This document shows, one piece after another, positions 2,242 to 64,000 of a DNA stretch of 64,000 bases. Where the stretch lies: assembly GCA_951406725.2 (NCBI GenBank), contig OX597818.1:15004001-15068000 (forward strand). The letters are read 5' to 3'. This stretch comes from Octopus vulgaris (lineage: Eukaryota). The number at the start of each line of letters is the position of its first letter. The stretch's first letter is position 1. Both the position numbers and the translations under genes were made by a program. A model generated the notes under the pieces. It worked only from the letters and a program-made list of their open reading frames with translations. It had not been told where the DNA came from and ran no database searches.

Positions 2242-2308
2242 TGATTTTTGATTTTTGATTTTTCCAGTTTCAGCTAATGAGCTGTGGCCATGCTGGGGCA
2301 CCGCCATT
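2242..2308 (-). mobile_element. Stem-loop retroposon 3' tail with (AAAAATC)3 terminal repeat attached to tRNA-Gly
   Basis: AATGGCGGTGCCCCAGCATGGCCACAGCTCATTAGCTGAAACT, 41/43 identical to the tail at 56478-56520. Confidence 0.85.
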
Positions 2309-2322
2309 GAAATAAATATCTT

Positions 2323-2387
2323 TGCATCGGCCGGGAATCGAACCCGGGCCGCCCGCGTGGCAGGCGAGCATTCTACCACTGAACCAC
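2323..2387 (-). pseudogene. tRNA-Gly(GCC) copy lacking first 6 nt of acceptor stem; probable retrocopy
   Basis: Reverse complement GTGGTTCAGTGGTAGAATGCTCGCCTGCCACGCGGGCGGCCCGGGTTCGATTCCCGGCCGATGCA matches eukaryotic tRNA-Gly-GCC; expected 5' GCATCG is replaced; no CCA; followed by AAGATATTTATTT and a retroposon tail. Confidence 0.9.
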
Positions 2388-3448
2388 AATTCTACAATAT
2401 AGAATTTCTTCAATTGGAATTTACCTATGATTTTTCCAAGTAGATTCGATTGGGTCATGGCTTGTAAAGTTTTTTTCAATTTGACCCCCAATTAAGCAAA
2501 AATTCGAGAAAACTCAATATTTTACGATTTGCCTCTCTCATTTCAAGTGGTTTGCCCCTGCTATTACCAACACACTTTCTCCTTTCTCTTTGCAAGTGTG
2601 AAATTATTAAAGTGAAAGTATTAGATAACAGGGATGAGCCATTAATACTGGTCATCCTTTTTGCTTGAGGAAGATCCGCTATGGTCTTATATGCTACACC
2701 ACTGGTTTTCAATTCATATTAATCAAATTAATATTCAATTTTTCACCCTTATTATGTGTGTGTGTGTGTATTAGCAATTCGTATAAAATTGCATCAATGA
2801 CTTGAACTTGAATAAGTGCTTTCACATAAATGGGGATAAATTAAAAAGGTTTGTTGTTATTATTATTACTGTTTGACTATTGTAATCACGTTTGTTGGTT
2901 CCGCGTCAGGGAAACGTTGTTGTGTTGCATTTGTTAAATAATTGTAAACCGTAACCCTCCCCTTTCGGAGAAGGGGCTTTGGTTATTGTTTCAAAATTGA
3001 ATTGTGTCCCTGTTTGGGAAAATTGACAATATTTTCACCGTCTTTACGGAAGCAATTTTGTTAAAATGCCTTCGATAGAAGAAAGTCCAAAAATGAATTT
3101 CGCTGCAGCCCTACACTTCTATACAAGAGGGAGGACAAGATCCAATTGATCGAAATTGCAAGAGACGGGCCTACAATTCCAGTCTGTTATATATTTTGAG
3201 TATTGTTATCACTAGCGATATCAAGATATAACTTTGTATTTTGTATTTTATGTGTAGATGTATATATATAGATGTACATGTAATATGTACACATATATAT
3301 ACACATATAGACATGCATAATATATCTACCCATACGCACGCACACACACATACATAGGGGCAGGTGTGGCTGTGTGGTAACAAACTACATTCCAAACACA
3401 TGGTCCTGGGTTCATGTACATATATACAAACATACATCCATACATACA

Positions 3449-6339: not shown

Positions 6340-9300
6340 TAAAACTTCATCTAACTTTTTCATCTTTTGTATGATAATACAGATTAAGATCTCCCCCAAT
6401 CTCAAAAGTGATACATATAGTTGTCCATGAGAAAATACTTCATTTTTAATATTGATGCCAACTTTTTTTTTAATGTTTGGCCTTGTGATTTATTTATTGT
6501 CATAGCAAAGGGTAGTTTAACAGGAAATTCTAATCACTGGATCCTCTGCAATTAATTTAATTCTTAATGATAATATTAATCCATTTGTGTACTTTCCATT
6601 TAATATTTTTGCTTCAGTTACATTATTTGTAAGGGATTCCACTATTCCATTGCATAACTTTGGAGTTTGTAAATTTCTCAAAAGATTAATTGGAGCGCCT
6701 TTCTTCAAATTTATTTCATTTGGTGGAAGCCCCGATATTTCTAATGAATTTCAGGACTCAACTGGAAAATCTAATGCTTCAGTTGTATCAACTACTTGAT
6801 CTATAGAATTGTATATTTTTAATCTATGTTCTATTTTGTTAAGCAATCGCATATTAATAGCATCAACATCCTCATTTGTAGCATCTAAAATTGTTCTTTT
6901 TTTATATCCATTCTCTATTAGTGTAATTAACTGCAATGTCCTCAAAAATAAATGTTTCTAAATCAATTTGATTCTCAACTCTATTTCCCACTGGTAATAA
7001 TATCATGTGACTGCCGTAACTTGGGATCCTATTTTCTCCTACGGCTAATAGTTTATTTGCAACGACCTGTAAGTCATTATTTCTTAGGATATGCACTCTT
7101 ATATTAATTCTTAATGACAATTTGTGGACTAATGACCATAAATGTGATGCCTTGATTGATGCAGCTATTTCATCATCTTTTATACCTCTTGGTTCTACTG
7201 GAAGTATTTGTCTAAAATCACCAGTTAGTAAAACAGTAATATCACCAACAGATAAATTATTGTTTTTTATTTCTTTCAATGTTTTTTCAACAACCTCTAA
7301 AATCTTTTTGTTTGACACTGTAACGTAATCGCATACTAATAAATGTTAACCAAATTTTACTATTTTTTCTAATTGATGTTGTAAATTTATCAACTATTGA
7401 TGATGAAAATGGTAATGTATTATAAACAATACCCTCATGTGTTTTTACGTCTTTGAAAGATTTTGAACCTCTGACTACATTCAACAATAATCTCATACAA
7501 CAACATTCTGTTTGATTAGGTGGTACAGTGTAAATTCTAGAACATGTTTGCACAAATCTACCATTCAATCTTTTTTTCCATGTTTTATTCGAAGTAAGAG
7601 TATGAGATGGAATTGCTTTATACAACAAAGTTCTTGCATATTCATCATTTTTATTCAATTTGTAGAATAAAATTAGGGGATTTCTAATTCTTTGTTCCCT
7701 ATCATTACAGATGAAGTATACTCATTGGCCATTTTCTAAATCTATATCCAATTGTTGAACAGCTGGTATTGCATGTGAACATTACTTTGAAAGATTTTCC
7801 AAGCGACCTCATTACTGCTGAGATAACGTCCTGCCATAAAGTTATTAATCTTCATTATATTTTTAATTATTCTTTGTTCTGCGTACAACAACATCGCTAC
7901 CTTTATTCACGCATTTTGTTATATATATACAATGGATTGAACAGAGCATTAATGTGGCCTTTAATTGTTTTCAAAAGTAGTAGATAATAAGGTACAATCC
8001 ACCTATTGTCAATAGTATACATTTTTGAATTTCTTGTTATTGTTGCTGTTTTTCCTCCATCTTCTGTATTTCTCCGTCTGCATAAAGGATATCTAGTAAC
8101 ATCTGGCCTAGTTTCATAAATAAAATATTTTGGTAATTTTATTTCTCATTTTCCATTATTCATACATGGACATTTTGAATTTAATAAACCTCATGGACCA
8201 TGTACCATTTGTGTAGTGACAATAGCATAAAGATCAGGATAATTAATTTGATTGGGAATTTCGGCAGAGATTACTTTATTTTAATTGATTTGGATAAATT
8301 GTTTGCTCTAACCAAAGTAAGATATAAACATGTGGTAAGCCTCTTTTCTGCCATTCATGTCGGCTTTTGTTTTTTCAAATATTCCAGCACCCTTTTCAAC
8401 CAACATTTTCATTTTATTCAACTTTTGTTTGAAAACTCTGGCAATTTTACCATGCCTCCTGTCTTCATTTTTTTCTCTTTTGTACATGTTCTCTTTGATT
8501 TCATCCCAGTTAGGATTGCAAGTGAATGTTATGAATAAATCAAGCCAACCATATTCTCTCACATTACACTTTGCATCTTGAGTTCTTTCCTTCCAATATC
8601 TTGGACTTGCAACAAAAGTAGAAGGTAAAATTGCAACCATACGTAATTCTTGTGGATTGAGTAATCCTACATTATTTAAAGACTCTTTTAAAAGCGAATA
8701 TTATTCGACTCTGAGCTTGGTTTGATACTCTTTAATATAAAATAACCATTCAAATTCAGTTTTGGCATACATATCAACTGAATACATTTGGAACAATCGT
8801 TTACATCTTAGAATTTGATTCCAACTGTTTTTTTCTTGTAAAAGATATGCATAATATTGCCTGCATGTGACTTTCTTATTTGGGCTGTTTGATTTGTATT
8901 TGGGTCGTATAAAGGTATATCCAACGAGTAGCCATCATTTCCTCTCCAATTAATCAAAGGATTTTGTAACAGATTATAGGATCAATGTAATTCATTGACT
9001 TTTTATAGTATTATTTTTATAGGTAAAATTGTTTCTTCGTGGAAATTCTATTCCAGCCATTACTAATCCTACATCGTTAGATACTTGGTTATTGTACCCT
9101 CGTGCATGCTCACCAGCTGGTACTATATCTGCACAAATTGACAATTTAAGATTAGGTTTGTTAACCAAAGGCGCCACAGTTTTAATTTGTCAAATAAGCT
9201 CATTATTTTCCAAAAGCATCTCTTGAATTTTCTTATAGTGTGCAAGTTTGTTGCAAGAAATTTAATATTTCTGATATTAATTTGGTCATTTAAATCATCT

Positions 9301-10000
9301 ATAAAGTAAACTTGAGCATATTTAGGAATATTTTCATCTGTATTATACAATGAACTTATTCTGTGGTAAATTTGACCCTGTGTTTTGAAAACTGGCATGA
9401 ATCCCGGGAGAGATATTGATTCATTAACTCCAAAGGATGTCATTGAAAACAATTTAATTATTTATTTTTTGATAATTTAAAAAAAGGTTCTGGAATCCAA
9501 ATTTCCCCCTAGCATTAGTGTATTTAAAGGTTCGAGTGATCTTTCAATCAAATTTAGTTTAACTTTACAATTTGAACAACGTAATCCCTTACGTTCGTCA
9601 TTAAATTTCGCACGACAATGCCGACAAACAACTGACAGTGTTCTTAAATTCGATAGATTATCATAATGTTTAGTTCGATCATAATCAAATGCTGCATTTC
9701 TAAATGATTTAACAGAAGTACGTAGTTCAGCATATCTTGATTTTCTTACTTGAGTTATAATTTCTTGTTCCTCCATAGTCTGAGTATTTCTTGCTACAAT
9801 GTACGAAATTCTAATTTCCCCTCTTATTTCTGGTGTCGAATTTTCTCTAGTTTCATTCCTTCTTTAAACTGAGAGTTTTTCCCGTCATCGTTTTTGATAC
9901 TTTCGATTTCTTGCTCTCTGAATTTCTCTCTTTCCACTTATTTCATTTCCTTTTTGGAGTTTTCTTGCAGTAATATTTAAAATTTTCCTCTTGTCATTGT
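6340..10000 (-). mobile_element. Decayed autonomous Helitron (Rep-PIF1 helicase pseudogene)
   Basis: Collinear fragments FKTQGQIYHRIS, DLFITFTCNPNW, LLTGDFRQILPV, LLRNLQTPKLCNG, FAMTINKSQGQT, FSHGQLYV split by frameshifts. Confidence 0.92.
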
Positions 10001-18534: not shown

Positions 18535-18865
18535 TTCTCTCTCTCTCTCTCTCTCTCACACTTTAGTATATTAGGATGTTGCGGTTAAATCTATGAAATC
18601 TATGAATAACTTTTCCCTGCGTAGGAGGAAAATAGTCTACACTGTTCCTTAATTATTTCCTTCTCAGTTTTTGATAATGACTTGGTTAGAATACAGTTAA
18701 AATGTAATCTTGGTGACATACAGATAAATGCTTATGTCCACCGGAGAGATTAGCATGTGAGTGATAAGGAGTAATAATTTAGCTTTCTCATTTTTATGAC
18801 ATTTAATACAAAGAAATGGCGTTCCACAGTTGTAAAAATGAAAACAGGCTACTTATCAATCTTAC

Positions 18866-19830
18866 CTTTTTTGTGTGCCCTCTACGTCATTTGCACCATT
18901 GTAAGCTTTGAGAATCCGAACAAGTTGATAATTGGTCTTCAATGGAAACTCTTGTCCAGTGAGATTAATGAAATATTTCCATTTGTAGCGTAAAAGTTGT
19001 TTCATACACAGAAGTTCCGGTTCCAAAACTGAGAATTCTCCCCAACGTACATTAATTGAAGGGGAAAGAATATGAACGTTTGTAAAACATTTTGCAATTG
19101 CTTTCATTGTTTTTAAAATACTACTTTTACTTTTTTGATCTACATGTATGCAGTAAAAGTTTTGTGGACGGTAAATAGCTCTTAAGAGTCTTTCAACTTG
19201 TTCAATGTCTTTATACATTAAAATGCTATAAGCCAAAGGAAAATATAACTCTTCTTCTGTCATATGACTGGTAATGTAACCCATTTTTTGCTTGAAATTA
19301 TTACAATTTTGAGTCAAATTTCTAAAGTAGGAATCCGGCAAACCAATATACTGTTTTGCGTTTTGAAATTTAATACCCTTATTCACTTCATTGATATCAT
19401 CGTGTGCCACTTTTTGACAATCAATTTTTGTCATGAAAACTTTATTTTTAAACAACGACTTTAAATCAGTTTGGTCATTGATGAAAAACTTATTTGTATT
19501 ACGAGTTTTTGTAAGTAATTTCGCCCCAGGAACTTTTGACATTTGCTGGTGTTTTACAGTACTGCTCTCTACGCTAAATTTACTTTTGAAACTATCAGTT
19601 TTTATTGCAGAACTTCCATTGGATATAATCAATTTTGTATTCGAAACAGAAACGGAGGAAGCTCTTTTTCTGTGTAAATTAAAATGCGACATTACTGCGT
19701 GATCTTCAATAAGTAATTGTTCACTATTCTTTACATTTCTGAATTGCAATTGAAAGATGTACAAGAAGAAGCACAAAGTAATTAATGTCACACTAAAGAA
19801 CACCTTCTTCAAAGAATATCTAGTCTTCAT
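18866..19830 (-). CDS. GCNT: Beta-1,6-N-acetylglucosaminyltransferase (GT14, core-2/I-branching enzyme), major coding exon; gene continues past donor
   Basis: Type II TM (VFFSVTLITLCFFLYIF), stem, then FPLAYSILMYKD, ERLLRAIYRPQNFYCIHVD, WKYFINLTGQEFPLKTN. Acceptor T11-AG at 19851-19852 (exon starts 19850); donor AG|GTAAG at 18865; ATG at 19830. Confidence 0.93.
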
Positions 19831-20302
19831 TTTGAAGCAGCAACGCAAAACTAAAAAAAAAAACAATAAAAAAATACAATGAATGCATATAATAGAGAGT
19901 GTAGCAATAGGTACATAATTGTTGAAACAACATTGAATAATATACATTCCTATCATTTTATCATTCTCTGCAAATTAAAGCAATGATTACACAGATTTCA
20001 ATTACAAAGTATGAATGTAATTCATAACAATTGTTCAATTCTCATATTATGAAGAAAAAGCCAATGTCTATTGATCAAAAATAGGAAGTCCTTCTAAATG
20101 GCATTTGCATTGAATGACAATTTCAACATTATCGACATAAAGCAAATACTATCAGCCCTTCCTAATCCAGCATGTCTGGAATAGTTAGATTAGTACATAT
20201 AATTTACCCAACGCCTAACCACCTTATTCTGCTTTTAAAAAGCACTGTAGTTCAGAGTAGAATTTAGTTAGAACACATAAGGGTACAGTTACAGTAATAT
20301 TG

Positions 20303-27130: not shown

Positions 27131-27185
<55 letters not shown>

Positions 27186-27600
27186 TGTTCATAATGGCCC
27201 TCTCAGACATGCCCTCAGCCACGCAGAGAGCCACGATCACAAGTTATGCAGATGATACAAAAGTTTCACAAGCAATACAGAACCCTGAAGACACTAAACA
27301 CCTGCAATGTGAGCTGGACAAAATATACAAGTGGGCTGAAAAGAATAGCATGCAGTTCAATGCTGAAAAGTTTCAAGCTTTATGCTATCAGCATGCAAAA
27401 CTAAATGCAATACCCAATGAATACACTGGACCCGGAGGGATTGCAATCCCAGAGGCACAATCAGTGCGTGGCCTGGGTATTTACATAAGTGATGACGCAA
27501 CATTTCATGTACATGTTGCTAAATTGGCAATGAAATGTAGACGACTGGCCGGATGGATTCTTAGAACCTTTAGAACAAGAGAACAAGAAACCATGATAAA
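27186..27600 (+). mobile_element. CR1/L2-group LINE RT fragment
   Basis: SYADDTKV...LQCELDKIYKWAEKNSMQFNAEKFQAL; related fragment at 28170-28465. Confidence 0.85.
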
Positions 27601-28169
27601 CAATTTAATTTGGATTGGTTGATTCTCTCCATTTCGTTCCCTTATGATAAAAGCAAGGAATTTTGCCATCTCTAATTTTTTATTCTTTTTTTCTAAAACT
27701 CTCCTTGCAAACACGGTTATAGAACGTGCTTATCGATGTAAACATTGGCAGAAACATTCCTTAGTTCATATAAGTGATATCTACCATTAAATATAATTTA
27801 AACATTGATTTTCTTCTTACATTTCACTTCCACTAGATATATATTGTTTCCAAGACTTTAGGCTTTTATTTAATTCACATATTCTATATTTCTCATTTAT
27901 TTGATTTCTGATTTTTTCTTTCTTTTACCTCTTCTCTTTCTATAGGCTGCCTTTGACGTTATGACCTCTAACGTTTTTTAAATAAACTTAATAGCGTTCA
28001 GTTCATCACTATACATATCCATCATATTCTGTTAAAATGTCTTATTGACGAGTTTTATTTCTTCATTTCTCTAAAGAGAAGATTACATTGTTTTACACCA
28101 CACCATTTTATTTTTGAATAGTACCAATGATGTCTTCGAAACATGAGTCAGAAGTAAAAGAATTTGAAT

Positions 28170-41067: not shown

Positions 41068-42525
41068 AAGGCCTAATTCCCCATAGGAGTGTTTAGCGAC
41101 AACAAGACACACACCAGTCATTCCATTCATTTCCCAGCTGAAAGAGGTGAACCTCGTCCTATGCTCGGGTCAAGCCATAGAAAGCAACCCCCAAAATCAG
41201 CAGTGGGGCCCGACAGCATATGTTGGTTTACTCCTGCCGCATCATGCTGGTTCCGTACCCATTTGTGCAACATCAATTCTCTCATCCGTCCAGCAACTCT
41301 CTCCAAGCTTTCCTATCATTTATAAACTCTCGTTTCACACACTCCAACACCTTTCACTGCCAAAGCTTTCCTCACTCCATCCATCCACACAAACTGAGGT
41401 CTGCCTCTGGTTCTGCTGCCTACCCCTTCTGCCTTCATCACCCTCCTTACTATCCGCTTCTCATCCATCCTCTCCATGTAGCCAAACCACCTCAACATTC
41501 GTCTATCCATTCTGGTACATGGATTTTCCCTTATTCCCGCTCATCTTCACACTTCCTCATTCCTCATCCCATCCATCCGTGTCACAGCAACCATAGCCCT
41601 CACAAATTTCATCTCAAACATGTAGTCACCTCCTTTCTGCCTCTCTGAGACCTCACGACTCTGCACCATATAACATTGTCAACACAATCACGTCCTCATA
41701 CACACCTGTTTTCGCTGTCATACTCAACCTTTTATCTATCAGCATACCTTTCACAACTCCAAGTATCTTATTCCCTTCTCTCACTATATCCCACTTCCTC
41801 AGCCATCACCCCCTATCCGCCGCCACATGCGATCCCAAATACTTGAAAACATCTCACCATTTATACTCACATTCATCCTACCAGCCATTCTATCTCTCGA
41901 ACATCTCATCACCTTACTCTTAGCTAATTCACTTTCAGTTTCCTCCTTCACACGCTTCTAAACTACCACCAGCCTCCTCAGTTGCTCTTCTGAATCCGTC
42001 ACCAGTGCTGTATCATCAGTCAACAACAACTGACATACCTGCCATTTCTCACCATTTTCCCCCACCATTTGAACTCCCATACTATACGTTCTAGCATTCA
42101 CCTCTTTCACCACACCATCCATATATAAATTAAAACGCCGCGGAGACATCAAACAACCCTGTCTCAAGCACACCTTCATACCAAACCGCTCACTTGCTTC
42201 ACCACTCACCGTAACGCACGCCCTACTTTCTCTATAGAAACTCTGTACAGCTCTCATCAATTTACCATATATTCCATACAACCGCAACACCTGCCACATT
42301 GCATCTCTGTCCACACAGTCATATGTCTTCTCCAGGTCCATAAAGGCCCTATATACATCCCTGTCTTTTGCCAAAACCTTCTCACACATCTGCTTTACAA
42401 CGAATATCTGATCTGCACACGCCCTTCCATTCCTAAAACAGTATTGCTCCTCCCTTAGTACATTCTCTGTTTGGTTCCTCACCCTTACAATCAGAATTCT
42501 CCCATACAGTTTACCAACCACTTAT
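41065..42525 (-). mobile_element. 5'-truncated RTE-clade LINE
   Basis: EEQYCFRNGRACADQIF, FMDLEKTYDCV, LRQGCLMSP, LLTDDTAL, MLRWFGYMERM; ends at (TA)n. Confidence 0.9.
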
Positions 42526-50187: not shown

Positions 50188-50252
50188 AATGGGGGTGCCC
50201 CAGCATGACCACAGCCTTTGGTCTGGAACACGTAAAAAGATAAAAGAGTAAG
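50188..50252 (+). mobile_element. Stand-alone stem-loop retroposon tail
   Basis: AATGGGGGTGCCCCAGCATGACCACAGCCTTTGGTCTGGAAC then AAAAGATAAAAGAG; same start as tails at 2308 and 56478. Confidence 0.75.
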
Positions 50253-54924: not shown

Positions 54925-55316
54925 TTTTACTCTTTTACTCTTTTACTTGTTTCAGTCATTTGACTGCGGCCATGCTGGAGCACCGCCTTTAGTCGAGCAA
55001 ATCGACCCCAGGACTTATTCTTTGTAAGCCCAGTACTTATTCCGTCGGTCTCTTTTGCCGAACCGCTAAGTGACGGGGACGTAAACACACCAGCATCGGT
55101 TGTCAAGCAATGCTAGGGGGACAAAGACAGACACAAATGTGACCTCGTGTGTACCGTTGGCGATTTTTTTCCTCTGTCTTCCTATGTTTCCGACGAAGAG
55201 CTCCGTTCGAAACGTTAAACCCTCCTTCTTCCCTTCTTTCCTGAGCGTCCAATAATACTATATTTGTTCCACGTCCTCGCGTTGTTGTGTTTTTTGTGTT
55301 TTCTTGTTTGGATTAA

Positions 55317-56272: not shown

Positions 56273-56351
56273 TGGTAAAAACGGTAAGATAACAAAAGAA
56301 AGAAAGATACCTCAATATTATGTAAATAGAGGACATTTATCTATATATATG

Positions 56352-56472
56352 GCTTACGGCCATATCACGTTCAAAGCACCGGTTCTCCTTCGATCACCGA
56401 AGATAAGCAAGATCGAGCCTAGTTAGTACTTAGATGGGTGATCGCTTGGGAAACCTAGGTGCTGTTAGCATT
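56352..56472 (+). pseudogene. Full-length dispersed 5S rRNA copy (retrocopy or SINE3 head)
   Basis: GCTTACGGCCATATCACG...CGATCACCGAAG.TAAGCA...GTTAGTACTT.GATGGGTGA...GGTGCTGTTAGCATT; several substitutions at normally conserved sites, no T-run terminator, sits in (TA)n. Confidence 0.92.
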
Positions 56473-56477
56473 AAAAA

Positions 56478-56534
56478 AATGGCGGTGCCCCAGCATGGCC
56501 ACAGCTCGTGAGCTGAAACTAGATGAAATGAAAT
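56478..56534 (+). mobile_element. Stem-loop retroposon 3' tail attached to 5S
   Basis: AATGGCGGTGCCCCAGCATGGCCACAGCTCGTGAGCTGAAACT + AGATGAAATGAAAT. Confidence 0.85.
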
Positions 56535-56551
56535 ATATATATATATATATA

Positions 56552-57072
56552 CCGTAAATCTTCGAGTATAGTCCGCCCTTGAGTATAATACGCAGGGGAT
56601 TTTTAGAGGGGTGTACTTCTGAAAAACCTAAACCTTGTGTATAATACGCATCCCTTCTCTAACTTGAGTCGTGCGTAATTAAGCCAGCAGCACCTAGTCG
56701 AACAAACACTTCCGCGCATGCGTAATACAATAATGGTGGTGTTCTTAACTGTTATATGGGAATGTAAATGTTTGCAAATTGTGTTTGTTACATGTTATTC
56801 TGTGTTCTGAATACTTTTATTTTAATAAATGTTGCTTACTGCAAGTTATGGGTGATTTCGTTATGACTTCATTGCTTTCAGGCTGAGCTTAAGGTATTAT
56901 CGCACCTGACATCACAAAATGCGTCTGAATAAACATTGCCGGACAGCAAATAGAGACTCGGACATTGCTTAGAAAAGATTTTTCATTTTTAACCTCGTAT
57001 ATAGTACGCACTAGGGATTTTGACCTTTAAATTTTGAGGGGAAAAATACGGATTATACTCGAGGATTTACGG
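56552..57072. mobile_element. Tc1/mariner (pogo-type) MITE
   Basis: TIR CCGTAAATCYTCGAGTATA / TATACTCGAGGATTTACGG, TA flanks. Confidence 0.9.
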
Positions 57073-57214
57073 TATATATACTTATATATATATATACACA
57101 CACAAATATATAAAAATACTACGCTCATTATCATATTAGGAAATTATTATTATAATTATCATCATCATCATCATCATCATTATCATTGTTGTTATCATTA
57201 TTATTATATTTCAC

Positions 57215-57366
57215 CCGTCTTTACATTCTGGGTTCAAATTCCGCCGAGGTCGACTTTACTTTTCATCCTCTCGGAGTCGATAAAATAAGTAGCAGTTGAA
57301 CACTGGGATCAATGTAATCGACTCATCTCCACCTCCCCCAAGCTGCCCTTGCGGCAAAAATTTGAA
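57215..57366 (+). mobile_element. SINE family B, 5' truncated
   Basis: GTTCAAATTCCGCCGAGGTCGACTTT body. Confidence 0.8.
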
Positions 57367-57405
57367 AATGATGATAATAATAAAAAGAAGAAGAAGAAGA
57401 AAATG

Positions 57406-58048
57406 CCCTGATGCAGTACCAGGCAGTGGCTCTCATGGCTTCTGATCTTAACTGATTTGAAGTGTTATCATGAACATTGTTTTGTCTTGGTATAAAAGAT
57501 GGGCTACAGCAAATATTCTGCTCAATATCACAGATTTGCTTGTCAGTTGTTTGCCCTTAACCAGTTGAACATGTCCCTTAGTGGCTGACGATATGTGCAT
57601 CTCTGATCACGAGCAGAAGTATTGCTGGAGCATCATAGCCATCTGTTGGAACGGATTCTTTGGGGTTTGAATAATTCACCTCTGGAAACATGGGTGTTTC
57701 ATTCAGCATCCTTATTCAGGGACATTTTGAGCAGGATGAGTTACTCGACTAGAAGAAAATTCTAACTGGGCCCCACCTGCAAGGTCATGCGCTGTTTATC
57801 TTGATATGAGAACACCATGTCGCACGCATATGGTTGTGATGCATGTGCCTAGTCTACCCTTATCAGACAGGTAGTCATGATGGGTATACTGGGCTCCGTA
57901 TATTTTACCCCAGTGTCACTTTGAAGTCATGCACTGCTCTCTCACTCAATGATGATGATGATGATGATGGCGATGATGATGATGATGATGATGATGCTGA
58001 TGACGATGATGATGATGATGATGATCATCATCATCATCATCAGCATTA

Positions 58049-58091
<43 letters not shown>

Positions 58092-58638
58092 CATTGAGTG
58101 AGAGAGCAGTGCATGCCTTCAAAGTGACACTGGGGTAAAATATACGGAGCCCAGTATACCCATCATGACTACCCATCTGATAAGGGTAGACTAGGCACAT
58201 GCATCACAACCATATGCGTGCGACATGGTGTTCTCATATCAAGATAAACAGCGCATGACCTTGCAGGTGGGGCCCAGTTAGAATTTTCTTCTAGTCGAGT
58301 AACTCATCCTGCTCAAAATGTCCCTGAATAAGGATGCTGAACGAAACACCCATGTTTCCAGAGGTGAATTATTCAAACCCCAAAGAATCCGTTCCAACAG
58401 ATGGCTATGATGCTCCAGCAATACTTCTGCTCGTGATCAGAGATGCACATATCGTCAGCCACTAAGGGACATGTTCAACTGGTTAAGGGCAAACAACTGA
58501 CAAGCAAATCTATGATATTGAGCAGAATATTTGCTGTAGCCCATCTTTTATACCAAGACAAAACAATGTTCATGATAACACTTCAAATCAGTTAAGATCA
58601 GAAGCCATGAGAGCCACTGCCTGGTACTGCATCAGGGA
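57406..58638. repeat. 1.2-kb palindrome: two ~545-bp near-identical inverted copies around a (GAT)n(CAT)n(TAT)n centre
   Basis: CCCTGATGCAGTACC...CTCACTCAATG versus CATTGAGTGAG...GGTACTGCATCAGGG; about 5 differences seen by eye. Confidence 0.97.
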
Positions 58639-61954: not shown

Positions 61955-63905
61955 CTAGGGTAGAGAAACGCCCTGTTTACATTGGTAGGCCATTAAAATA
62001 AACACACCAAACTGTCCGTTTACGAAGTCCTGTGATAGAGAAAAAAGGAAAGAAAGACAGAGAAAAATAAAGAATAAAAAAGTAAAAAAGTAAACAAAGA
62101 AAATAAAGGGGGAAATGGGAAAGAAAATTCGCAGTGACAATGCTCTGTTCATTATGTGTGATGTACTAGTTAAGACAATCTTTTGCACTTCCTGTATGGA
62201 CGGTAAGCCAAGAATCATTCTTAAATAATTTTCAGTTCGCTTTTTGATCATTCCAAGTGCTACTACAATCACTGGTATTGTAACCGTCTTGAGATGCCAC
62301 ATCTTTTCGATTTCGATGGGTAAATCTTCAAATTTTCTGAGCTTATCAAATTCTTTTACCAAGACATTATGGTCACAGAGAATGCTCATGTCAGTCGATA
62401 AACAGACTTTATTGCTTTTGTCTTTCACAACAATATCTGGTTTGTTTGCTTTGATGGTCCGGTCTGTACATACTGGGAAGTCCCAAAGAATAGTTACATT
62501 TTCTCCCTCAGTTACAGCCTCAGGGTGGTGCTTGTACTTTTTGTCAGCGTTTTTGATTTTATAATGCCAATACATTTTCCAGTGTAGATATTGGCCATTT
62601 TTCATCACATTCGCTTGATAGTTCCGGGTCAATAAGCTCTGATCTTGAGTAACCAAGATAAAGCCTTCACTCTCTGCCTTTAGCTCTGAGCTCCGTAGCC
62701 ACTGATGGTTTGCTTCTTGTCTACATCAGCTTGTTTGCTACGGGCCATATATTTGCCATGCAGAGATTTTTTGTTCCTACCTATCAGCCAATTGTTCAAA
62801 CGCATTTTGCTTTGCTATTGATTTAACCTTCTTTGCAACTACAGTTATAGCACTTCCATCATGCTGTTCAGCCTGAGTATTATGCATAAGCTCACTTGAA
62901 AATATTTTACTTTCCTTCATAACAGAATGTAGCTTCTTACGTCTTTCGTGGTTTTCAACGAGCTTTAGCATCCAATCGTTAGATATTTCAAGATATTTTG
63001 CCAGTTCATTTATGGTGGTTTTGTAAGAGATTTCAGATTGCATCAAGCCTCGACCTCCTTGAGCTCTGGCTAGAGAAAGACGGTCTACGTCTCCTTTTGG
63101 GTGGTGCATCTTACTGCAAGTCGGGAGCTTACGGATTTTCCAGTCAATCTTCCTTATTTAGCTCATATTCCAGTGCAACACATTGAATAACAACCGGAAC
63201 AGCTAAGGAATTTATAGCTAACACTTTGTTACGTGCATTTAACTCGGATGTTAGGACTGCTCGAACTCTTCTGTAACACTCCTTCCTGATCTCCTCTTTC
63301 ATACTTGCATGCTGAATGGCATAGCCCTCATTTATTCCGAGGTATTTGTAAGTTGGTTCCTGCTCGAGTAATTTTATGACTGTCAACATCCATTTCCACT
63401 GAATGTGAAATCTTCAGTTTCCCTTTCTGGCACATTTATCAAGACCAAATTCCCTCCTAATGTCATCACTGAATGCTTTCCCAGTGCGTAGTAGTCCTTC
63501 AAGCTCATTATCGTCTTTGCTATAGAGTTTTAAGTCATCCATATAAAACAGGTGACTTATTTTCTTGTCGCCAATTTTATATCCACACTTTGTTCTGTTG
63601 AGTTCACTTGTAAGGGGTATTATGGCTTTGCAGAAAATTAAAAGTGAAAGTGAGTCATCTTGAAAATGTTGCAGTTGATATTAATATTTTTTGTGGTCAG
63701 TACTCCATCAGAGTGGTATAGTTGGATATTCGTATTCCACATTGATATGTTGTGCGTCAGGAGGTTTGAAATCGCAGGAGAAATTTTGAAGATATCCAGC
63801 GATTTCAAGATCCATGAATGCGGTACGCTGTGGAAGGCCTTTTTATAATCAATCCATGCAGAACTGAGATTTCTGCGTTTATTATGACATTTCTCTAGGA
63901 TCATG
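61955..63905 (-). mobile_element. 5'-truncated R4/Dong-clade non-LTR retrotransposon (RT + RLE)
   Basis: WIDYKKAFHSVPHSW, HLFYMDDLK, YKYLGI, GGRGL, ILWDFPVCTDRTIKANKPDIVV...IEIEKMW. Confidence 0.92.
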
Positions 63906-64000
63906 CTCAGTAGGGAAAATGTTCTGTTTCATAAATTTGTATGTTTACTCCACGAAAATGGACGTTAAAATTTTATATGTGGTAGATAGACATGTTATTG

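Follow-up and report, generated by a model that had tools for sequence, protein, structure and literature searches.

A 5S rRNA copy fused to a short repeat tail: probable template switching from a LINE RNA

Introduction

How did a complete 5S rRNA sequence come to stand directly in front of a short, GC-rich repeat tail inside a TA tract? The question arises from one locus in a 64-kb stretch of DNA, referred to here as the window. The original prediction for this locus set a one-off template switch from the tail RNA onto 5S RNA beside a cephalopod SINE3 family, and held that its reading would fall if the tail were part of the normal 5S rDNA repeat unit.

Results

A full-length 5S rRNA copy precedes a short tail

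The Rfam 5S_rRNA model matched positions 56352-56470 over its entire length (model positions 1-120 of 120, 91 bits, E = 2.8e-18), in agreement with the predicted complete copy of about 120 nt starting at its natural 5′ end. TT adjoins the match, so that the copy ends in ...AGCATT at 56472. A run of seven A (56473-56479) lies between the 5S end and the GC-rich tail, whose start can be placed at 56477 or 56480 and which closes with (GAAAT)2 at 56525-56534. The succession of AGCATT, A run, tail and terminal repeat was therefore read as described originally. The parent element of the tail aligns from 56477; the last three A of the run are thus the parent's, and four A are extra. A single additional G at 56351 sits just before 5S +1. 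The T4 terminator is absent for 128 nt past the 5S end, the first run of at least four T lying at 56600, again as predicted. The whole element spans 183 nt and is interspersed, containing the sole 5S match in the 64-kb window (Table 1).

TA repeats were also confirmed on both sides, with the 9-nt sequence TATATATAT at 56342-56350 and again at 56534-56542. As a candidate target-site duplication (TSD) this sequence proves little, because it sits in a microsatellite, and no empty-site joint was present among the 15 joints listed in a comparison with public contigs. This comparison covered 56273-57140 in 4 of 24 runs (X1, X4, X6, and X8, from four organisms), with X1 covered to about 80%. Summed contig depth is not equal to copy number; depths were scaled to a single-copy unit, defined as the depth of the longest unique-looking records (for X4, one 171-nt record).

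Both flanks of the element are repetitive. Depth over the left-flank repeat reached 0.08-1.3 million in its first two bins, and loose ends behind 56333 and 56345 indicated that it continues differently elsewhere. One X1 contig (depth 661, about 10 units) joined this repeat at 56333 to the tail at 56485 without 5S. To the right, a 521-bp MITE-like element at 56552-57072, with terminal inverted repeats of about 26 bp (30/32 nt inverted match) and seen in 4/4 runs, is inserted in the same TA tract as the 5S-tail copy.

Table 1. Features of the 5S-tail locus and of two related loci in the window
Start	End	Strand	Feature	Basis
2245	2392	-	Comparison locus: tRNA-Gly(GCC), 14 nt, and a LINE tail of the same subtype with (AAAAATC)3 at its end	
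27185	27613	+	RT fragment of the putative donor LINE family, not physically linked to the 5S copy	82% to P0001
56225	56272	.	(TA)24 microsatellite, context	Sequence
56273	56345	.	Fragment of an unrelated high-copy repeat, breaking off just before 5S	Contig depth
56342	56350	+	TATATATAT, candidate left TSD, degenerate, within the TA tract	Repeat comparison
56351	56351	+	Additional G preceding 5S +1, from the flank or non-templated	
56352	56472	+	Full-length 5S rRNA copy, sense, 6 private substitutions	Rfam, contig depth
56473	56476	+	A4 linker, in neither 5S nor the usual upstream sequence of the LINE	Loose-end contigs
56477	56534	+	Putative extreme 3′ end of a LINE: AAA, two hairpins (56480-56501, 56502-56515), (GAAAT)2	
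56534	56551	.	TA tract with candidate right TSD	
56552	57072	.	MITE-like DNA transposon, distinct from the 5S-tail copy, high-copy, with terminal inverted repeats and flanking TA	

The tail very likely derives from the 3′ end of an abundant LINE

The tail consists of two adjacent hairpins (folding z = -2.7). A profile built from 6 window copies recovered 7 copies at E ≤ 6.6e-10; an eighth match was weak (E = 0.026). The double hairpin is kept across the seven, and at 2 of its 12 pairs both letters have changed in a compensating way. Four of the window tails form the end of longer SINE-like repeats, and the one at 50188 is headless; the six others in the window are without 5S.

Within the compared interval, the bin holding the tail was the deepest of 30 in 4/4 runs. 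Among the ends listed, 80, 60, and 38 contigs departed from our sequence at 56477 in X1, X4, and X6, respectively (agreement 0.48-0.58), sharing one common upstream consensus, while none departed there in X8. Translated by hand, the consensus read I-L-E-V-K-L in X1 and I-H-E-V-K-L in X4; no C-terminal LINE match was readable from the upstream sequence of X6 or X8.

A donor was sought with the RT fragment at 27185-27613, a query chosen on the assumption that it belonged to the donor family. Its best relative, P0001 (82% over 141 aa), is a 1033-aa protein with the C-terminus ...IPEVKFVK. Domain matches to PF14529, PF03372 (below cut-off), and PF00078 place APE and RT in a single ORF, a trait of several LINE clades, CR1 included. 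The only named relative of P0001 was a protein from Argonauta hians (62% identical), which, taken with the look of the repeats, suggests an octopod host. The pattern IxEVK[LF], composed after both the consensus and the P0001 C-terminus had been seen, matched 1 of 132 C-termini (that of P0001); across the 116,994 positions of the remaining 131 proteins it was never complete, with 7 reaching 4/5. When the tail itself was translated, frame +2 scored at least 26 against the C-terminal 30 residues in 6 of 132 related LINE proteins; internal windows reached this score in 5 of 2640 cases, and each of the remaining five frames yielded 0-1 of 132.

Because the upstream consensus matches the P0001 C-terminus and frame +2 aligns to LINE C-termini, we consider it very likely that an abundant P0001-type APE+RT LINE terminates in the 58 nt of this tail, a link made through translation of sequence. 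The C-terminal motifs of P0001 look like those of the CR1 clade, in which we provisionally place the donor on these protein motifs. A literature search for the CR1-like C-terminal motif gave no match, and a PDB search with the LINE protein returned distant L1 and R2 proteins only.

RTE had been considered as the tail donor because of a resemblance and was discarded once the sequence upstream of the tail matched the C-terminus of another LINE. The tail profile had no match at or just 3′ of the other window RT fragment at 41958-42521. A 27-nt tail pattern found 0 matches in viral, metagenome, and genome contigs. A 17-nt pattern found 120 loci, none of them BLAST-similar to the window at E < 1e-5, and these were treated as chance. 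The tail motif was likewise absent from the literature searched and from supplementary files 1-4 of PMC9115989.

A tRNA-Gly copy and SINE-like repeats carry related tails

A second Pol III-type head is joined to this tail near the start of the window. The tRNA-Gly lies at 2323-2392 on the minus strand, and its tail agrees with that of the 5S copy at 43/46 nt in the core and 88% over 59 nt. The loop and the terminal repeat (AAAAATC) are other than those of the 5S copy, so the two tails are not identical, contrary to the original claim. It held true that the tail is shared by two types of Pol III promoter, but this is expected if one abundant LINE donates its 3′ end.

An 11-nt match brackets the tRNA-Gly head and tail together, its upstream side lying about 35 nt before the tRNA; 2 of 1500 random stretches matched equally well. 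If this match is a TSD, the insert (window 2245-2438, minus strand) included about 30 nt from upstream of the tRNA and 14 nt of trailer, which would imply a precursor or read-through tRNA-Gly RNA. With its bracketing match, this locus leans toward single events.

Four SINE-like repeats, at 54990, 44295, 37685, and 17348, end in an older variant of the double-hairpin tail (62-72% relative to the tail of the 5S copy, 28-33 of 45-46 nt, for the three that were scored). These endings suggest an abundant SINE family that moves with the machinery of this LINE lineage. A further SINE-like repeat, also abundant, occurs at 57207-57370 and in about 12 other places (74-88% alike over 38-173 nt); the tail profile had no match in the copy at 57207-57370.

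Other features of the window include two near-identical repeat copies in inverted orientation about 500 bp apart (57600-57760, minus; 58283-58490, plus), two further RT-bearing retroelement fragments (41958-42521 and 61955-63928, both minus), and an ORF with a Core-2/I-branching glycosyltransferase domain (18862-19974, minus). PIF1-helicase fragments at 6902-9863 (minus) are presumably Helitron-like.

The 5S-tail junction is rare in public contigs

The lowest depth over 56472-56476 was 1775, 739, 95, and 241 in X1, X4, X6, and X8, equal to 0.76, 0.28, 0.27, and 0.10% of 5S depth and, across 4/4 runs, to 0.011-0.055% of tail depth. These values correspond to about 27, 13, 14, and 35 single-copy units and are upper bounds, since tail contigs with A-rich flanks also cover 56472-56476. 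No contig piece spanning the junction was present among the pieces listed, no 5S-to-tail joint among the 15 joints listed, and no variant in the length of the A run was found in the four runs.

These depths make it unlikely that the element belongs to a high-copy SINE3 of such structure, or that it is a normal 5S unit. The junction, at no more than 0.8% of the depth of 5S and 0.06% of that of the tail in 4/4 runs, gives no support to the cephalopod SINE3 family proposed originally for this structure. The values are no genome-wide count, and a family of tens of 5S-tail copies may exist within the bound.

The same figures bear on the circumstance that the original prediction saw as fatal to its reading, namely that the tail lies within the normal 5S rDNA repeat unit. 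In a broader form of this explanation, our element would be an orphon of a normal or variant unit. The 5S copy is full length and begins at +1, and 5S-like sequence is highly repeated in 4/4 runs, as this explanation would have it. It is nevertheless highly improbable: the junction amounts to at most 0.8% of 5S depth, a single 5S occurs in 64 kb, the TA tract on its 5′ side does not resemble the loose-end consensus found before 5S +1 in X1 and X8, and the tail traces to a LINE. The tandem arrangement, spacer, and T4 terminator of a 5S rDNA unit were all lacking.

The 5S copy is decayed

Among the positions listed, the 5S copy carried six private substitutions in 4/4 runs (56372, 56388, 56403, 56411, 56442, and 56466). 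The majority letter at these sites accounted for 87-100% of 5S depth in 4/4 runs and the window letter for 0.006-13%. At 56403, the window letter had a depth of 215, 416, 48, and 14 in X1, X4, X6, and X8 (about 2-7 units, at most 0.2% of depth). Four of the six changes break stem pairs and a fifth replaces a G-C pair by G-U; the sixth lies at an unpaired site. No compensating change accompanies any of them. By Xenopus numbering, we take two to lie in box A and one in box C. The copy is probably neither a working gene nor an active SINE master, and its substitutions are consistent with an inactive sequence that has decayed neutrally.

In X1 and X8, 19 and 17 contigs, respectively, start at 56352 (5S +1) among the ends listed and have many different 5′ flanks (agreement about 0.5). 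The depth of 5S-like sequence amounts to thousands of units, highest in X8. Varied flanks and depth together reflect either a large number of dispersed 5S copies or variable spacers. Another letter made up 2-36% of depth at 56390, which implies at least two 5S types.

Could the 5S copy and the tail have arrived separately? A dispersed, A-ended 5S copy might have entered the TA tract first, with a severely 5′-truncated LINE landing later at its 3′ end. The tail is extremely abundant and has a headless example at 50188, the TA tract took at least two other repeats (the 521-bp inverted-repeat element and the left-flank fragment), and 5S copies elsewhere show many different 5′ flanks. In addition, the 5S part appears more diverged from the majority than the tail among the positions listed (6/120, or 5%, versus 0/46), a gap that could point to two ages, though it falls short of significance (Fisher p = 0.19). 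However, two events would require the LINE to land precisely between the A run and the TA tract, in sense and with no A or 5S letters duplicated at its 3′ side. The 11-nt match around head plus tail at the tRNA-Gly locus fits one event. On balance, we regard separate insertions as unlikely.

Another reading makes the element an old copy of a low-copy, body-less SINE3 with a 5S head and a LINE tail, spread to tens of sites by a Pol III master. The layout is that of a minimal SINE, Pol III would read through the tail to the first T4 at 56600, and the depth bound leaves room for about 13-35 units. Vertebrate SINE3s use CR1 tails in the available parts of PMC7245038 and PMC3747384 (Table 1 of the latter), and four 'SINE/5S' families covering 9.83 Mb appear in the annotation of Octopus vulgaris, their structure not being given in the accessible text of PMC13282606.

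SINEBase, as far as its description in PMC3531059 goes, assigns a sequence to SINE3 on at least 60% identity to 5S over at least 60 nt and at least 100 copies. At 183 nt, the element is below 1 kb, interspersed, and not tandem, and its head covers Rfam model positions 1-120 with 6 differences from the majority 5S. Its number, by contrast, has an upper bound of about 13-35 units, taken from contig depth and not from a genome count, which is under the 100-copy criterion. Neither a body nor a shared diagnostic change was found; the substitutions of this copy, whose sharing had been proposed as the mark of a SINE3 master, were not common to other copies in the four runs (the 56403 letter staying at or below 0.2% of depth in 4/4). 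According to the portions of Kojima's study at hand (PMC4494074), many LINE copies with the same 3′ end mark independent template-switch chimeras, not SINEs. LINE copies with the 3′ end of our tail are abundant, and the 5S-tail copy fits this pattern. A low-copy SINE3 is accordingly quite unlikely in our view.

A model of template switching in one event

The element is probably a dead chimeric retropseudogene, produced by a template switch from LINE RNA to 5S RNA, probably in one retrotransposition event. Its head is a cellular RNA in sense, immediately followed by the 3′ end of a LINE (the latter recognised through translation), and many LINE copies carry this 3′ end without the head. Of the two branches originally proposed, the one-off switch is thus retained, with the LINE 3′ end as donor, and the SINE3 branch is not.

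In our model, the LINE protein would bind its own RNA by the 3′ double hairpin and prime reverse transcription in the (TA)n tract. After about 58 nt, at AAA, the RT would shift to the 3′ end of a mature 5S RNA, whose short oligo(A) tail would pair with TTT of the cDNA and supply the four extra A. The RT would then copy 5S through to +1, and the product would integrate with a short TA duplication. Neutral decay of the 5S copy would follow integration.

What the sequence and the depths show directly is the layout of the element, its private substitutions and broken pairs, the rarity of the junction, and the abundance of the tail; the steps of the model, with the single event and the oligoadenylated 5S template, are inferred, as are the inactivity of the copy and, with more strength, the LINE identity of the tail. 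Short non-encoded A tails, with a median of 3-5 nt, are described for 5S and pre-tRNAs in the consulted part of PMC3102002, in yeast rather than in the host. Two other routes, ligation of the RNAs ahead of copying and addition of untemplated nucleotides by the RT, may have operated instead and would give an identical structure.

A bolder version holds that the 58-nt tail of an octopod LINE is enough by itself for mobilisation and that this LINE repeatedly captures whole Pol III RNAs (mature 5S at this locus and, 54 kb off, a tRNA-Gly precursor), with tens of 5S-tail copies coming from one master. We consider this rather improbable. If true, the tail would maintain a standing pool of head-plus-tail SINE seeds, and the element would be the smallest SINE3 and the first structurally described in a cephalopod.

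Comparison with known systems

The preferred reading, a chimera formed by one template switch, has its closest relatives among U6 pseudogenes. U6 pseudogenes made by L2 and RTE LINEs arise solely as template-switch chimeras, and in platypus the L2 piece is short and the TSDs are 1-9 bp, according to the available sections of Doucet et al. (2015; PMC4476161). The U6-L2, U6-RTE, and U6-Mon-1 chimeras of platypus and Anolis resemble the present element in that a Pol III RNA stands in sense 5′ of a short non-L1 LINE 3′ piece, and their short TSDs and origin in independent events invite the same comparison. The heads of the platypus U6 chimeras are mostly 5′-truncated, whereas the 5S head here is full length; the A4 linker, the invertebrate host, and the CR1-like LINE are further differences. 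CR1 is represented in the parts of that study seen here by one unresolved turkey case only.

Human 5S/L1 and tRNA/L1 chimeras likewise join 5S or tRNA to a LINE 3′ end in one insertion (10.1101/2025.02.02.635956). From the accessible text of that work, the human 5S/L1 chimeras are mostly antisense, truncated, and formed with L1, whereas our 5S copy is in sense and full length, like U6/L1.

Among SINE3 families, zebrafish SINE3 and AmnSINE1 (5S, Deu domain, CR1 tail) share with our element a 5S head and a LINE-derived tail with a simple terminal repeat. Ped-1, CoeSINE5, HaSE3, and SINE-1_Pmo, which combine 5S with RTE pieces, also have a 5S head and a LINE-derived 3′ tail; such 5S-plus-RTE SINEs are listed in the part of PMC5786205 at hand. 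Compared with SINE3 families, the 5S-tail element is without a body or a LINE 5′-UTR piece.

Within cephalopods, the octopus tRNA-derived SINEs OR1 and OR2 (Ohshima and Okada 1994) probably come from the same host group, and the four SINE-like repeats of the window that end in a related tail are a further point of comparison with them. The 'SINE/5S' group of O. vulgaris, compared by its description in the accessible text of PMC13282606, includes 7 recent insertions averaging about 6 kb, versus 183 nt here. Our literature search found no description of a cephalopod 5S-plus-tail element, a weak negative that covers publications.

As an ordinary dead retrocopy, the locus is of modest value and probably does not represent a new repeat family. 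It does provide a likely donor for a very common repeat tail. It also extends chimeras of small RNAs and LINEs, mostly known from vertebrate U6, to 5S, to a CR1-like LINE, and, as far as the host can be inferred, to an octopod. Should many fusions with different Pol III heads exist, they would offer a clean system for studying the birth of SINEs by template switching.
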